Shown one piece after another: positions 5,571 to 20,775 of a DNA stretch of 57,947 nt. The position numbers and the translations under genes are program-made. Source of the DNA: Alphaproteobacteria bacterium MarineAlpha5_Bin7. Its GTDB lineage: Bacteria > Pseudomonadota > Alphaproteobacteria > HIMB59 > GCA-002718135. The stretch is from the NCBI GenBank assembly GCA_002938195.1, contig PTKX01000005.1, positions 1-57,947 on the forward strand, read 5' to 3'. Within the stretch, counting starts at the first letter, position 1. Every line of letters begins with the position of its first letter. The notes beneath the pieces are model-generated. The model saw nothing but the letters and a program-made list of their open reading frames with translations. It did no database searches and was not told the origin of the DNA.

Positions 5571-6473
5571 CTATTTTTTGTCAGGTTTAAATTCATTATT
5601 AGAATTAATTTCAAGCGATGAATCTAAAATTAAACTTAACCATTCTGATGTTTTTTTTATACCTCCAAATGCATAAAAATGCAGTTTTGCCAATCGAGAA
5701 GCTGGATTTTCCTGTTTATATAGAGCAAGATCAGTGATCAACTTATCAGGAGTCTTAGATGAGGCAAGTTTAGTTATGTTTAAAGCTTGTTTTGAGAGAA
5801 ACCTTATGGAATTTCTTATGCCACATGAAGTAGCATAGGATATCAAAGTTTTTAAAGTTGCCGGACCAGGTATGCCTGCATGAATTTCTAATTTATTGTT
5901 TAAGGAATTTAGATGATATTCCCATTTTTCAAAAATAGAAGCTTCAAAAAAAAATTGTGTAGCTATATATATTTTAAAATCGACATTATTAGCAAAATTA
6001 TTTTTTTCAATAATTGCCTTATCAAGTTCAGTATTAGAAATATCTGGACTACCTTCCGGATGTCCAGCTACACCAACTTGAGTAAAGTTAAATTTTGATA
6101 ATAAATCTGTTTTTAAAACTTCTATACTAGAACTAATTTCTCCTTTTTGATTTCCCCCACCTCCAATAATTAATATTTTTTTACATCCTGCATTTTCTGA
6201 TAAGGAACCTATGTATTTTTCTAAATCTGCAATATCTTTTATTGTTCTGGCTGGGAGGTGAGGGATTACATCAAATCCTTCAAGATTTAATTTTTTACAA
6301 GTATTTACTACATTGTCTGGGTTTTCATCTGGCAAGTAAGTTACATATACATCATTCTTTTTAGGTAACATTTCAATAAAAGTACCATATTTATTATAAA
6401 CATTAGGTGTAGTTTCTATTGAGAAATCTTTTATTAATTCTTTGATTAATAATTCTTTATAATTTGTTGCCAT
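5571..6473 (-). CDS. metF: Methylenetetrahydrofolate reductase family protein
   Basis: FSIETTP, PHLPAR, VAGHPEGSP, ATQFFF motifs; directly upstream of fhs. Confidence 0.85.
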   Translation of the reverse strand: MATNYKELLIKELIKDFSIETTPNVYNKYGTFIEMLPKKNDVYVTYLPDENPDNVVNTCKKLNLEGFDVIPHLPARTIKDIADLEKYIGSLSENAGCKKILIIGGGGNQKGEISSSIEVLKTDLLSKFNFTQVGVAGHPEGSPDISNTELDKAIIEKNNFANNVDFKIYIATQFFFEASIFEKWEYHLNSLNNKLEIHAGIPGPATLKTLISYATSCGIRNSIRFLSKQALNITKLASSKTPDKLITDLALYKQENPASRLAKLHFYAFGGIKKTSEWLSLILDSSLEINSNNEFKPDKK

Positions 6474-6506
6474 TTAATAACATTTATTTATATATTTTTC
6501 CTGTAA

Positions 6507-7442
6507 ATGAATAGTGATCAATTTACCATAATTTCTTTTTATCAATTCAAAAAAATTCGTAATCCTGAGAAATTACAAATAATATTAAAGGATTTTTGCT
6601 TCTTTCATAAAATTAAAGGAACAATCCTTTTAGCAAATGAAGGAATTAATGGAACAAATGCTGGATTAAAAAATTCTATTAAATTACTGCAAGAGAAATT
6701 AAATGAATTAAATTTCAAGGATTTAGAGATCAAAGAATCTTTGTGTCAATATATGCCTTTCAATAGATTGAAAATTAAAATTAAAAAAGAAATTGTGACA
6801 TTTGACGGAAATCACTACAATTCACTCACCGGTACTGCCAAACATATAGATAATCAAAGTTGGAATAATTTGATCAAAGAAAAAAATACGCTTGTAATTG
6901 ATGTAAGAAATGAATTTGAGAATAAGATGGGAACCTTTGTAAATTCATTAAATCCTAAAACTAAATCTTTTTCTGAATTTAAAAAATATGTAGATTCATT
7001 TTTAAGTAAGCATAAGGATAAAAATATCGCCATGTTTTGCACAGGAGGAATAAGATGTGAAAAAGCATCTTCTTATATGTTAACCAAGGGTTTTAAAAAT
7101 TTATATCAATTAAAAGGAGGCATAATAAAATATCTTGCAAAAATTCCCAAAAAAGAATCTCTATGGCAAGGTGAGTGCTTTGTATTTGATAATCGTGTAT
7201 CTATTACAAATGGAATGTCAGTAGGAACTTATTCTTTATGTCATGGCTGCAGATTACCTATAAATTCTGAAGATAAGGAGTCTTACAAATATGAAGAAGG
7301 TGTTACATGCCCAAATTGTTTTAATAAAATATCTTTAGATAAAAAAAGAAGACTTAGAGAGCGCAACAAACAGATTAAAATATCCAAAAAGAAAGGTATT
7401 TATAACCCCTATATTAGATTAACTACTTTTGATTATTCTTAA
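6507..7442 (+). CDS. trhO: Rhodanese-domain tRNA U34 hydroxylase (UPF0176/TrhO)
   Basis: GTILLANEGINGT, KKEIVT, MFCTGGIRCEKAS, LKGGIIKYL, GECFVFDNRV. Confidence 0.9.
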   Translation: MNSDQFTIISFYQFKKIRNPEKLQIILKDFCFFHKIKGTILLANEGINGTNAGLKNSIKLLQEKLNELNFKDLEIKESLCQYMPFNRLKIKIKKEIVTFDGNHYNSLTGTAKHIDNQSWNNLIKEKNTLVIDVRNEFENKMGTFVNSLNPKTKSFSEFKKYVDSFLSKHKDKNIAMFCTGGIRCEKASSYMLTKGFKNLYQLKGGIIKYLAKIPKKESLWQGECFVFDNRVSITNGMSVGTYSLCHGCRLPINSEDKESYKYEEGVTCPNCFNKISLDKKRRLRERNKQIKISKKKGIYNPYIRLTTFDYS

Positions 7443-17542: not shown

Positions 17543-18107
17543 AATAGAAAAAAAAAATCAAAGAAAAAGTGCAAATATAAAGAGAGAAAAACTTTTTTCT
17601 GCAAATAAAAATACTCAAGTAAATTTTATTAGGAATTTAGAAAAATTAGACTTATTTAAAAAAGCTAAAATTATAGGAAGTTTTGTTTCAATTAGAACTG
17701 AAATTTCAACCCTTGAAATAAATCATTTTATTTTAAAAAATGACAAACAATTATGTTTGCCTAAGATTAATGGCATGTCTAATGAATTGATTTTTAAAGA
17801 ATATGATTTTAAATCTAAACTTGTTACTGGTAAATATGGAACTCAGGAACCAAATAATAATAATCAAGATTTATTACCTGAAATTATTCTCACTCCCTGT
17901 TTAGCTTTCGATATGCAAGGATATAGACTTGGATACGGAGGAGGTTATTATGATAGGACATTTGATTTTTATGAAAAAATCAATCATGATTACATTTCTA
18001 TTGTTGTTGCTTATTCAGATCAAAAAGTAGATAAGGTATTTCATAATGATTTAGATAAAAGAATCGACTACGTATTAACAGAAAAAGAATTATATAAAAT
18101 TAAATGA
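17529..18107 (+). CDS. ygfA: 5-formyltetrahydrofolate cyclo-ligase
   Basis: P.LAFD..GYRLGYGGGYYDRT, D..ID..LTE. Confidence 0.93.
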   Translation: MMNIEIEKKNQRKSANIKREKLFSANKNTQVNFIRNLEKLDLFKKAKIIGSFVSIRTEISTLEINHFILKNDKQLCLPKINGMSNELIFKEYDFKSKLVTGKYGTQEPNNNNQDLLPEIILTPCLAFDMQGYRLGYGGGYYDRTFDFYEKINHDYISIVVAYSDQKVDKVFHNDLDKRIDYVLTEKELYKIK

Positions 18108-18892
18108 AAATCATTTTTATTGGAGATATAGTAGGAAGGTCAGGAAGAGAAGCATTAAGCAATAATCTTAGTTTAATAAAAAAAAAATATCAACCTGATG
18201 TTATTGTAGCAAACGCGGAGAATGCTGCAGCAGGTTATGGCTTAAATAAAAAAATAGCTACCGAACTGATTGAGCAAGGAGTTGATGTTTTAACATTAGG
18301 AAATCATGCATGGGATCAAAAAGAAATGCTTTCCTATATTGAAGAATGTTCACAAATAGTTAGAGCTATAAATTATCCTGAGGGAGTGCCAGGTAGGGGG
18401 GAATGTAAAGTAGTTTTAGAAGATGGAAGATCCCTTATTGTTATTCAATCAATGCTTAGATTATTTATGGGCTTATCTTTAGATGATCCTTTTTTTTCTA
18501 TTAAAAAAAGATTATCTTCAGAATTTCTAGGCAGCACTGTAAATGCAATTATTGTTGATTTACATGGTGAGGCCACTTCCGAAAAAAATGCTTTTGCTCA
18601 TTATGTGGACGGCAAAGTAACAGCTGTATTAGGAACCCATACTCATATACCTACTGCCGATGCTAGAATTTTAGATAATGGTACTGCTTATCAAACTGAT
18701 GTGGGCATGACAGGAAACTATAATTCAGTGATTGGTATGGAAAAAGAAGGACCCATACATGGATTTACCAAGGGATATAGACAGGAGGGGCGCTTTGTGT
18801 CAGCTGCCGGAAAAGGAAAGGTTTGCGGGGCTTTTATTGAAAGTGATGATCAAAATGGTCTAGCAAAAATTATAGAAACTTTCCAAATATAA
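18104..18892 (+). CDS. ymdB: TIGR00282/YmdB family metallophosphoesterase
   Basis: FIGDIVGRSGR, NAENAA, TLGNHAWD, DLHGEATSEK, GTHTHIPTAD, TDVGMTG. Confidence 0.93.
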   Translation: MKIIFIGDIVGRSGREALSNNLSLIKKKYQPDVIVANAENAAAGYGLNKKIATELIEQGVDVLTLGNHAWDQKEMLSYIEECSQIVRAINYPEGVPGRGECKVVLEDGRSLIVIQSMLRLFMGLSLDDPFFSIKKRLSSEFLGSTVNAIIVDLHGEATSEKNAFAHYVDGKVTAVLGTHTHIPTADARILDNGTAYQTDVGMTGNYNSVIGMEKEGPIHGFTKGYRQEGRFVSAAGKGKVCGAFIESDDQNGLAKIIETFQI

Positions 18893-18987: not shown

Positions 18988-19734
18988 ATGGCAGGACATT
19001 CAAAGTTTAAAAATATAATGCATCGCAAAGGTGCCCAAGATAAAAAGCGAGCAAAAATATTTTCTCGTTTGGGGAGAGAAATTTCTGTTTCAGTTAAAGA
19101 AAGCGGACCTGATCCAGAAAAAAATATTCGACTCCGTTCTGCTATTACTGCAGCTAAGTCATTAAATATGCCAAAAGATAATATTGAACGCGCAATTAAA
19201 AAGGGAGAAGGAAATGATGCTGACTCTAATTATGAAGAAGTAAGATATGAAGGTTATGGACCTTCAGGGATTGCAATAATTGTGGATGCTATGACAAATA
19301 ATAAAAATAGAACAGCTGCTGAAATTCGTTCTATTTTTAGTAAACATGGAGGAAATCTTGGAGAGACAGGTAGCGTGAGTTATAATTTTAAAAGACTAGG
19401 ATCTATATCGCTTGAAAAACAACTTGCAAATGAAGAAGATCTCTTTGAATTTGCTATAAATAATGGCTCCCAAGATTTTGAAGTTAACGAAGATAACTAT
19501 GTAGTTTATTGTGATCAAAGTCACCTTCATTCTTTAAATGAGAAAATTATTAATAAATTTGGATCAACAAAATCAACTGAATTAACTTGGATAAGTGAAA
19601 ATAATATTAAAGTACAAAAAGAATCCGCTGAAAAATTATTTAATTTATTAAATTCTTTAGAGGAAAATGATGATGTTCAAAATGTTTCTTCAAACTTTGA
19701 AGTTTCGGAAGAAATTTTACAAAGTTTAACTTAG
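18988..19734 (+). CDS. yebC: YebC/PmpR family protein
   Basis: MAGHSKFKNIMHRKGAQD, MPKDNIERAI, YEGYGPSG, LEENDDVQNV. Confidence 0.97.
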   Translation: MAGHSKFKNIMHRKGAQDKKRAKIFSRLGREISVSVKESGPDPEKNIRLRSAITAAKSLNMPKDNIERAIKKGEGNDADSNYEEVRYEGYGPSGIAIIVDAMTNNKNRTAAEIRSIFSKHGGNLGETGSVSYNFKRLGSISLEKQLANEEDLFEFAINNGSQDFEVNEDNYVVYCDQSHLHSLNEKIINKFGSTKSTELTWISENNIKVQKESAEKLFNLLNSLEENDDVQNVSSNFEVSEEILQSLT

Positions 19735-19753
19735 CTAATAGAAAGGTATTTAA

Positions 19754-20056
19754 ATGGCTGATAAAACTTGGAAAAAACGAGAAAGAGATGTCGCAAGTTA
19801 TTTTGACGGCATAAGAACGCCTTTAAGTGGAGGTAACGGAAAAGTTACTAGGGCTGATGTTATACATGAAGAACTATTTATAGAGTGTAAGTTGAGAGCG
19901 AAACATACAGCTGTTTCACTTTGGGATGATACGGCTAAGCTTGCAAAAGAAGAAGGCAAAACTCCAGTTATTGCTTTGTGTGAAAAAAATAGACCTGGAT
20001 TCTGGGTCATGGTTCATAGCAATGATTTAGAAAAAATAACTAAGAAAAAAATCTAA
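19754..20056 (+). CDS. PD-(D/E)xK nuclease, Hjc-type (archaeal/phage) Holliday junction resolvase-like
   Basis: E10-R11 helix (KRERDVA), R21-T-P-L-S-G, A-D35, I-E44-C-K46. Shine-Dalgarno GAAAGG at 19741-46; stop overlaps the tolQ start (TAATG). Confidence 0.75.
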   Translation: MADKTWKKRERDVASYFDGIRTPLSGGNGKVTRADVIHEELFIECKLRAKHTAVSLWDDTAKLAKEEGKTPVIALCEKNRPGFWVMVHSNDLEKITKKKI

Positions 20057-20775
20057 TGGAAACAGTAGTTACTTCAGAAGCAATTTCTTCAGCAGCAATA
20101 GATTTTTCCTTATTATCTTTATTTTTAAGGGCAGATTTGGTGGTAAAATCTGTAATAATTATTTTAGCTTTAGCATCAATATATTCTTGGACAATAATAA
20201 TAGCGAAATTAATTAAAATGAAAAAGTTAAGACAATTAGAAAATGAGTTTGATGAAATTTTTTGGTCAGGAAATTCATTTGAAGATCTATACGAAACATT
20301 TAATTATAATCAAGAAGATCCAAAATCTAAAATTTATTGCGCTGCAATGAACGAATGGAAGAAAAGTAAACAAGGTAAAGCTATCTCAAAATCACATGAT
20401 TTAAATTCTTTAAAAGAAAGAATGCATAGATCTATGTTGGTTACATTCAACAAAGAATCAGAATTGATTGAGAAGAATTTAACATTTTTGGCTACTTCAG
20501 GTTCCACCGCTCCATTTATTGGTTTGTTTGGAACTGTTTGGGGAATAATGAATAGTTTTCAATCAATAGCTATAGCTCAAAATACAAATTTGGCAGTAGT
20601 TGCTCCTGGTATAGCAGAAGCTCTATTTGCAACAGCTTTAGGTCTTTTTGTAGCAATACCTGCAGTTGTTGCATACAACAAATTGACCAGTGATTTATCT
20701 AAATATTTCATGTCTTTAGAGTCTTTTATTGATGAATTTACAACAATATTCTTTCGCCAACTAGAAAATAAATAA
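20056..20775 (+). CDS. tolQ: TolQ
   Basis: LFLRADLVVK, FWSG, FLATSGSTAPFIGLFGTVWGIM, VAPGIAEALFATA. Confidence 0.96.
   Translation: METVVTSEAISSAAIDFSLLSLFLRADLVVKSVIIILALASIYSWTIIIAKLIKMKKLRQLENEFDEIFWSGNSFEDLYETFNYNQEDPKSKIYCAAMNEWKKSKQGKAISKSHDLNSLKERMHRSMLVTFNKESELIEKNLTFLATSGSTAPFIGLFGTVWGIMNSFQSIAIAQNTNLAVVAPGIAEALFATALGLFVAIPAVVAYNKLTSDLSKYFMSLESFIDEFTTIFFRQLENK

Follow-up and report, generated by a model that had tools for sequence, protein, structure and literature searches.

RuvABC is regarded as the standard bacterial route to finish homologous recombination, and the replacement of RuvC by unrelated resolvases such as RecU and RusA is a known kind of event. RecU, a PD-(D/E)xK resolvase of the Firmicutes, stands in RuvC's stead in a bacterial phylum and works with RuvAB. 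RusA, a small phage-derived resolvase from a cryptic prophage of E. coli, can replace RuvABC and needs RecG to do so, with the RusA and RecG bypass suppressing E. coli ruv mutants. In the archaeal Hjc enzymes catalysis depends on acidic residues and a lysine arranged as E...D...ExK. The locus considered here lies in a stretch of 57,947 nucleotides (the window, meaning the whole stretch that was analysed) from Alphaproteobacteria bacterium MarineAlpha5_Bin7 (GenBank assembly GCA_002938195.1, contig PTKX01000005.1), in which a 100-codon open reading frame (ORF) at 19754-20056 (+), between yebC and tolQ and hereafter called X, probably specifies a PD-(D/E)xK nuclease of phage type, predicted to resolve Holliday junctions as a dimer and likely to do so in place of the RuvABC that its order lacks. 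The assignment draws on the ORF itself, a match to the phage protein family PHROG 2002, conservation and structural models, from which we infer resolvase activity. What is new is that an entire order lacks RuvABC and has in its slot a minimal enzyme of phage type.

In the literature searched, including the available parts of PMC10308909, PMC10734472, PMC13712998 and PMC3815206, supplementary tables aside, neither X nor a loss of ruvABC from the order was found to be described. The NCBI annotation of the X protein is hypothetical, while IMG already names one near-identical protein 'Holliday junction resolvase'. The order HIMB59 includes the family GCA002718135, as given in the accessible part of one study (PMC10734472). 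A sequence-only reading of the window had placed it among SAR11-like bacteria, a placement that has to be given up as the order appears to be of the HIMB59/AEGEAN-169 type and not SAR11 proper.

The same reading had proposed that ruvC, ruvA and ruvB were replaced at this locus, and the three proteins are absent from the window's genome and from the order, a closed genome included. In the window's genome (93% complete) there was no RuvC and no RuvA_N match, with the RuvB models finding only other AAA+ proteins far below cut-off. RuvC was found in none of 80 genomes of the order that are at least 80% complete, and in 22 genomes of the order neither RuvA nor a RuvB above cut-off was detected, the best RuvB score being 30.8 bits against a cut-off of 299. 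Further searches covered five good genomes of the order (G000, G116, G080, G142 and G133), including the closed one and that of the window. RusA and RecU were found in none of the five, nor was RadA/Sms over its cut-off, with the lengths and matched regions of the sub-cut-off RadA matches being those of proteins which we take to be Lon, DnaB and RecA. RadA/Sms is nearly universal in bacteria. RecA and YqgF/RuvX were present in all five and full-length RecG in four (672.6 bits in the window's genome), such that of the two branch-migration partners previously suggested for X, RecG or RadA, the former is retained and the latter was not found. X appears to be the only candidate resolvase of the order besides YqgF. 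The retention of RecG in the absence of RuvAB resembles the situation in which RusA operates, whereas RusA has an unrelated fold, X has no Pfam RusA match, and RusA is a silent backup in E. coli while in its own order the X-type enzyme is apparently, YqgF aside, the sole candidate. Unlike RecU, which works with RuvAB, X is found where RuvAB is absent, and no RecU match was obtained.

X is a strongly constrained core gene of the order with a fixed place between yebC and tolQ. It is present in 74 of the 80 genomes, which span two families, including 22/22 of high quality and one closed single-contig genome, with the six genomes lacking a match being 81-88% complete. Within the window's family X was found in 98 of 116 genomes, with a frame identity of 72-92%, and in all 11 high-quality ones. 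The order ymdB-yebC-X-tolQ-tolR was seen in all 26 loci examined (25 from other genomes and the window's own), as far as each reaches, and six longer loci read tkt/ygfA-ymdB-yebC-X-tolQRAB-pal. Both the mutually exclusive distribution, with RuvC in 0/80 of these genomes, and the conserved yebC-X-tolQ synteny had been proposed as checks on the reading of the window. At the protein level X is 92% identical to the window's copy in the main genus, compared with 72% for yebC, 73% for tolQ, 81% for tolR and 64% for ymdB, and in the second family X is 66-70% identical with yebC at 50-52% and tolQ at 48%. Nonsynonymous divergence (pN) from the window follows the same pattern, being 0.055 for X, 0.198 for yebC and 0.173 for tolQ at locus L004, and 0.21, 0.32-0.35 and 0.35, respectively, in the second family. 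Locus L030 is an exception in that the pN of X (0.176) exceeds that of yebC (0.165), and X is thus not the lowest. For X, pN lies far below synonymous divergence (pS), in a comparison in which synonymous sites are saturated. One genome, G074, carries two copies of X on one contig (G074:C14:2118-2414 and G074:C14:22920-23216), one of them within a 305-aa open frame, with an assembly artefact, duplication or fusion as possible causes.

These data bear on whether X might be nothing but a remnant of a prophage or selfish element without cellular function. The family to which X belongs is mainly viral, as such a remnant's would be, yet no other phage gene lies nearby, two bacterial families have X at one fixed position, no high-quality genome lacks the gene, its pN lies below that of the neighbouring core genes as well as far below pS, and the genomes of the order are streamlined (1.2-1.6 Mb) and would be expected to lose useless genes. 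A functionless remnant is accordingly the least credible of the explanations considered here.

The position that X occupies belongs elsewhere in the class to ruvC. In a class sample of 401 alphaproteobacterial genomes (even sampling, 397 of high quality, 295 genera) RuvC was detected in 383, one of which (G180) is unpublished, and the X family in only five, all of this order. In all eight class relatives whose RuvC neighbourhood was examined ruvC directly follows yebC, with ruvC-ruvA-ruvB confirmed by Pfam in two of the eight and the full order tkt...ymdB-yebC-ruvC-ruvA-ruvB-tolQ-tolR-tolB-pal in one (G456). The alphaproteobacterial gene order previously stated for this region, with ruvCAB after yebC, therefore holds for the adjacency of yebC and ruvC and in its entirety for a single genome. 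Since yebC and ruvC are adjacent in 8/8 relatives and X follows yebC here, X sits at the position of ruvCAB.

Thirteen other genomes of the class sample lack RuvC, with RuvB also missing from 11. In two of these, G252 and G478 (family f105), the synteny is the same with tolQRAB-pal behind, and yebC is followed by a 164-aa ORF (L168:5428-5922, -, and L169:5414-5908, -) whose matches are to PHROG 1770 'Holliday junction resolvase', at E 2e-35 in one case and 8e-35 in the other, and to PHROG 159 'RuvC-like', with no Pfam RuvC match. In G194 (family f47) tkt/ygfA-ymdB-yebC is kept and a PP-loop family gene, instead of tolQ, lies behind a 167-aa resolvase ORF (L167:5437-5940, -) that is a bona fide member of PF24608 PDDEXK_15 (E 2.2e-21) and matches PHROG 244. 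Comparison of the X family with this ORF by hhalign gave E 0.036, which is not significant, with R-x-P-x-SG, D and E-C-K lining up. Directly after yebC there are thus three different phage-type nuclease families in lineages without RuvB and RuvC, namely these two lineages and the order of X.

X matches PHROG 2002 'Holliday junction resolvase' (E 7.6e-10) in such a way that residues 3-97 of 100 align with profile positions 16-115 of 130, the name of the PHROG being an annotation and not an experimentally based function. The same PHROG was matched by 39 of 44 sampled distant relatives of X, eight of which also matched PHROG 244 more weakly. None of the 44 had a Pfam family for the X domain, with three giving sub-threshold matches to PF24608, the 'phage putative PDDEXK endonuclease', and X itself had no match in NCBIfam. 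Searched exhaustively with a profile, a set of 1.84 billion representative proteins gave 1043 clusters (50% identity) at E<=1e-3 and 610 at E<=1e-10, mostly of 95-180 aa. When 127 diverse members were scanned against Pfam at E<=10, PDDEXK_15 was matched by 15 (best E 2e-4), all below the gathering score of 27 bits, UPF0102 by one, and X itself had no PDDEXK_15 match. PDDEXK_15 is as such the nearest Pfam family to X, yet X falls below its cut-off.

Across the alignment of these 127 members, whose identity to X goes down to 35%, E10, R21, G26, D35 and K46 are invariant, and W6, K7, A14, S25, E44, A64, E67, K69, P71 and G82 are conserved in at least 90%. Read from the alignment, the conserved residues form the E...D...ExK pattern of PD-(D/E)xK nucleases. 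The motifs E10-R11, R21-x-P-x-S-G, D35 and E44-x-K46 that had been picked out of the window are present in the translation, as E10-R11, R21-T-P-L-S-G26, D35 and E44-C-K46, while the C-terminal pattern W....A...GK.P......R..F.V described with them is followed only approximately in its spacing. E10 (codon 19781..19783, +), in helix 1, is a predicted metal-binding or catalytic residue, its role being assigned by analogy with Hjc, D35 (19856..19858, +) is the predicted catalytic Asp of the PD-(D/E)xK motif and E44-C45-K46 (19883..19891, +), in strand 3, is the predicted (D/E)xK catalytic motif. Among the relatives, one metagenome protein (P0252, 318 aa) combines an X-family domain with one of uracil-DNA glycosylase type (PF03167, E 7.6e-18), linking the family to DNA repair. 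Three others (P0130, P0139 and P0149) are extended at the C terminus by segments with many paired cysteines, perhaps zinc fingers, which the host proteins do not have.

The phage affinity claimed for X from the window is supported, both by the PHROG 2002 match and by close viral homologues. In IMG/VR, 161 viral contigs encode relatives of X, the best 80 of the 161 being 68-81% identical to it and many of the contigs being 30-38 kb in length, and yebC, tolQ and the other neighbours of X occur in none of these best 80 viral loci. At L048, an annotated viral locus, the X homologue lies between the small and large terminase genes, with portal, protease and capsid genes downstream and helicase and HNH genes upstream. 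Measured from where the homologue ends, a large terminase gene (74-100% identical to that of L048) begins between -60 and +400 nt in 67 of these 80 loci and lies 470-1150 nt downstream in nine, the other four loci ending too soon. The large terminase of Pelagibacter phage Baldr is 78% identical to that of L048, with an unrelated ORF upstream of it and not an X homologue. Of 50,697 isolated-phage records just two matched X (44% identity), one of them annotated as a 'DNA endonuclease' of a Bacteroides phage. The ESM Atlas clusters that resemble X by their features are 93% viral or pseudomonadotal in origin. T4 endonuclease VII and T7 endonuclease I are debranching and resolving enzymes that remove junctions before packaging, and a nuclease beside the terminase would be expected of an enzyme with this task. 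The genes for the PHROG 2002 proteins and for the uncharacterised Caudoviricetes proteins serve the DNA of the phage itself, whereas X is a core gene fixed in the chromosome.

In a quick, unconstrained tree of 110 rows (101 columns) each host family forms one clade with viral sequences around it, viral and host rows being interleaved. A constrained tree holding all host rows together had a log-likelihood (lnL) 26.8 higher and was not rejected by the approximately unbiased test (p-AU 0.82), and one holding all viral rows together (lnL 24.5 higher, p-AU 0.79) was likewise not rejected. Capture of X from a phage by the ancestor of the order would nonetheless be the more economical reading, because the wider family is viral, X is absent from the 396 other alphaproteobacterial genomes of the class sample and the locus is fixed in both host families.

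Structural predictions were made from two alignments. Model 1 (AlphaFold2, 22 close sequences) reached a modest mean confidence (pLDDT, the predicted local distance difference test, of 74.8), and its top 11 Foldseek matches in the PDB were all archaeal Hjc (probability 0.99, template modelling score 0.55, E 0.02). With VIA-align model 1 matched P. furiosus Hjc (1gef) at Z 7.0 with a root-mean-square deviation (rmsd) of 3.9 over 86 residues, A. fulgidus Hjc at Z 6.3-6.6, and the resolvase of Thermus thermophilus phage 15-6 (7bgs) at Z 5.5 with an rmsd of 3.1 over 79 residues and 16% identity. The last is phage-encoded and, from its PDB title, of Hjc type, while belonging to a different sequence family from X. 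The remaining VIA-align matches listed are mainly PD-(D/E)xK nucleases, judged from their titles. Fourteen predicted viral structures matched model 1 at E<=1e-3, every one of them a tailed-phage protein and two bearing the name Holliday junction resolvase. Model 2, built from the 127 diverse sequences, had a pLDDT of 90.7. The protein was also predicted to form a homodimer with a score of 0.68 against a best control of 0.00, the runs sharing at least 96% of contacts and the partner chain having a pLDDT of at least 77. The mark set for this score is reached by 20/30 solved one-chain pairs and 1/23 solved single chains, and the prediction used an analyst-built alignment. As solved Hjc dimers exist, likeness to these may contribute to it. 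In the predicted dimer the lowest-error contacts join strand 41-46, which contains E44 and K46, to strand 69-75 of the other chain, with strand 84-88 pairing with its own symmetry mate.

Set beside the archaeal Hjc/Hje enzymes (PF01870; 1gef, 2wcw, 2wj0, 1ob9 and 1hh1), X is comparably small, all being of about 100-140 aa, and has their succession of secondary-structure elements (helix, three strands, helix, strands) as well as the E...D...ExK motif, with Hjc being the best solved-structure match of model 1 and a homodimer being predicted for X. It differs in being shorter, bacterial and phage-borne where Hjc is archaeal, and in a predicted dimer that is intertwined, strand 3 of one chain pairing with strand 4 of the other, an arrangement that to our knowledge has not been reported for Hjc.

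Among the structural matches are tRNA-splicing endonucleases (Z 5.1-5.6), and X adjoins yebC, with which it is probably co-transcribed. This raises the alternative that X is an RNA endonuclease of the splicing-endonuclease, PD-(D/E)xK type, working together with the translation or transcription factor YebC and not acting on DNA. Such a role is very improbable given that the E...D...ExK metal-site residues are conserved in the X family, while splicing endonucleases are not known to use a metal site of this kind, and that the closest relatives of X are phage genes beside the terminase, in a DNA-packaging context. The linkage of yebC and ruvC is moreover general in the class, so that adjacency to yebC points to DNA recombination.

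Several observations weigh against X being an Hjc-like resolvase that took over from RuvABC. By sequence, X has no Pfam family at E<=1, with Hjc (PF01870), RuvC (PF02075), RusA (PF05866), RecU (PF03838) and PDDEXK_15 (PF24608) all included in the search, profile searches of PDB sequences with two alignments (A1 and A2) gave no match at E<=10, and the Hjc family was touched by only one of the 127 relatives scanned (E 0.028). The higher-confidence model 2 does not superpose globally on Hjc, Foldseek giving no convincing global match in the PDB (Hjc only at E 1.4, rmsd about 15) and VIA-align against 48,161 chains reaching a best Z of 3.7, with residues 1-47 and 46-100 aligning separately. The Hjc-like fold is therefore that of the lower-confidence model, whose Z of 7 is in the range that the tool calls common, and the Hjc type assigned to X from the window stands as the best structural match of model 1 and does not extend to Pfam Hjc membership or to model 2. 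As for origin, a single host origin of X is compatible with the tree, whose 101 columns do not establish which way the gene was transferred. Three metatranscriptome runs were uninformative on expression, giving short contigs on yebC, tolQ and tolR only and none over X. YqgF/RuvX, moreover, could be argued to be an alternative resolvase. Lastly, in G391 (family f119), a closed 1.5-Mb genome without RuvB and RuvC, there is no ORF of at least 70 aa in the approximately 2 kb after yebC (L170:6145-8299), and because this slot is empty the loss of RuvABC need not be compensated. The part of the G391 slot that was read (800 bases, 6100-6900) has the look of decayed AT-rich DNA and may be what is left of ruvCAB.

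Some of these points lend weight to an alternative in which X, a PD-(D/E)xK nuclease domesticated from a phage, has another role on DNA, such as general debranching, flap or fork processing, repair nicking or an anti-phage or restriction-like activity, with junctions being handled by RecG reversal, topoisomerase dissolution or YqgF. PD-(D/E)xK nucleases have many functions, the fold matches of X include restriction enzymes, Cas4 and cap-snatching endonucleases, and phage resolvases are typically broad debranching enzymes. In keeping with this, viral resolvases are described as more promiscuous (PMC3864405). The fusion of the family to a uracil-DNA glycosylase domain in P0252, the presence of YqgF/RuvX and the empty slot in some genomes lacking RuvB and RuvC argue in the same direction. 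Set against this, X lies exactly in the ruvC slot, in an order where its occurrence goes together with the loss of RuvABC, and the occurrence in that slot of two other phage 'resolvase' families in two other lineages without RuvB and RuvC is hard to explain unless resolvase function was selected there. X is moreover a single-copy core gene with no partner methylase or immunity gene, and its conservation is far above that usual for defence genes. Another role on DNA is on balance unlikely, while being the competitor that deserves real consideration.

The lack of a global match for model 2 may itself have a structural explanation. From the predicted contacts, X is possibly a domain-swapped, intertwined dimer, in which case the open shape of model 2 would arise because it depicts the monomer of a swapped dimer in its open conformation. 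On the reading of X as a resolvase, an ancestor of the order would have acquired X from a marine phage, inserted in its yebC-ruv operon, and would have shed ruvCAB. RecA would form joint molecules, and RecG, the only dedicated branch-migration motor found, or else spontaneous migration, would move the junctions. An X homodimer with two metal-dependent sites, each composed of E10, D35, E44 and K46, would then bind the four-way junction and nick two opposite strands, with ligase closing the products. Translational coupling to tolQ and the place behind yebC would keep X expressed in the manner of ruvC. A bolder proposal, which we advance tentatively and find slightly easier to doubt than to believe, is that streamlined marine Alphaproteobacteria dropped the near-universal RuvABC more than once, each time with a single phage-derived resolvase of a different family behind yebC, PDDEXK_15 or phage RuvC-like in other lineages and Hjc-like (PHROG 2002) in this order, where it would be a minimal, intertwined (domain-swapped) PD-(D/E)xK dimer completing all recombination together with RecG.

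The arrangement of the locus is as the sequence-only reading described it, with a lone 100-aa ORF between yebC and tolQ, a 19-bp spacer, a GAAAGG motif and TAATG coupling all visible in the window. Upstream, ymdB (18104..18892, +; Pfam PF13277, E 8e-93) is part of the conserved synteny, being found in all examined loci of the order, and is followed by yebC of the TACO1/YebC family (18988..19734, +; PF01709, E 8.7e-54; PF20772, E 3.6e-32). The 19 nt between the end of yebC at 19734 and X contain a putative Shine-Dalgarno-like GAAAGG (19741..19746, +), read from the sequence, 7 nt before the ATG of X at 19754. The stop codon of X (TAA, 20054-20056) overlaps the ATG of tolQ at 20056 in TAATG, tolQ itself extending over 20056..20775 (+; PF01618, E 3.1e-36). 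Between yebC and tolQ there is no ORF of at least 50 aa besides X and an antisense ORF of 70 aa (19798-20010, -) that lies entirely within X and is most likely a by-product of sense-frame composition. Throughout, the labels tkt, ygfA, tolR, tolA, tolB and pal come from translations and synteny and not from family scans. An ATG is missing from the aligned start of X in the second family's closed genome and likewise in two first-family genera (L026:5786-6124, -; L029:4993-5295, +), and a GTG or other start (V-P-D-K...) is likely used in those genomes.

If X is the resolvase it would be one of the smallest enzymes of this kind, perhaps built as a swapped dimer, and would be a natural counterpart of the RusA and RecG bypass known from E. 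coli genetics as well as a clear case of a phage gene turned essential housekeeping gene. The occurrence of other phage resolvase families in the slot of two lineages lacking RuvB and RuvC opens the idea to testing by comparison and suggests that non-orthologous replacement may follow a general route. The order, apparently of HIMB59 type, is one of the abundant bacterial orders of the ocean, and a resolvase function for X would show how such plankton, with streamlined genomes and a minimal set of genes, continue to recombine.

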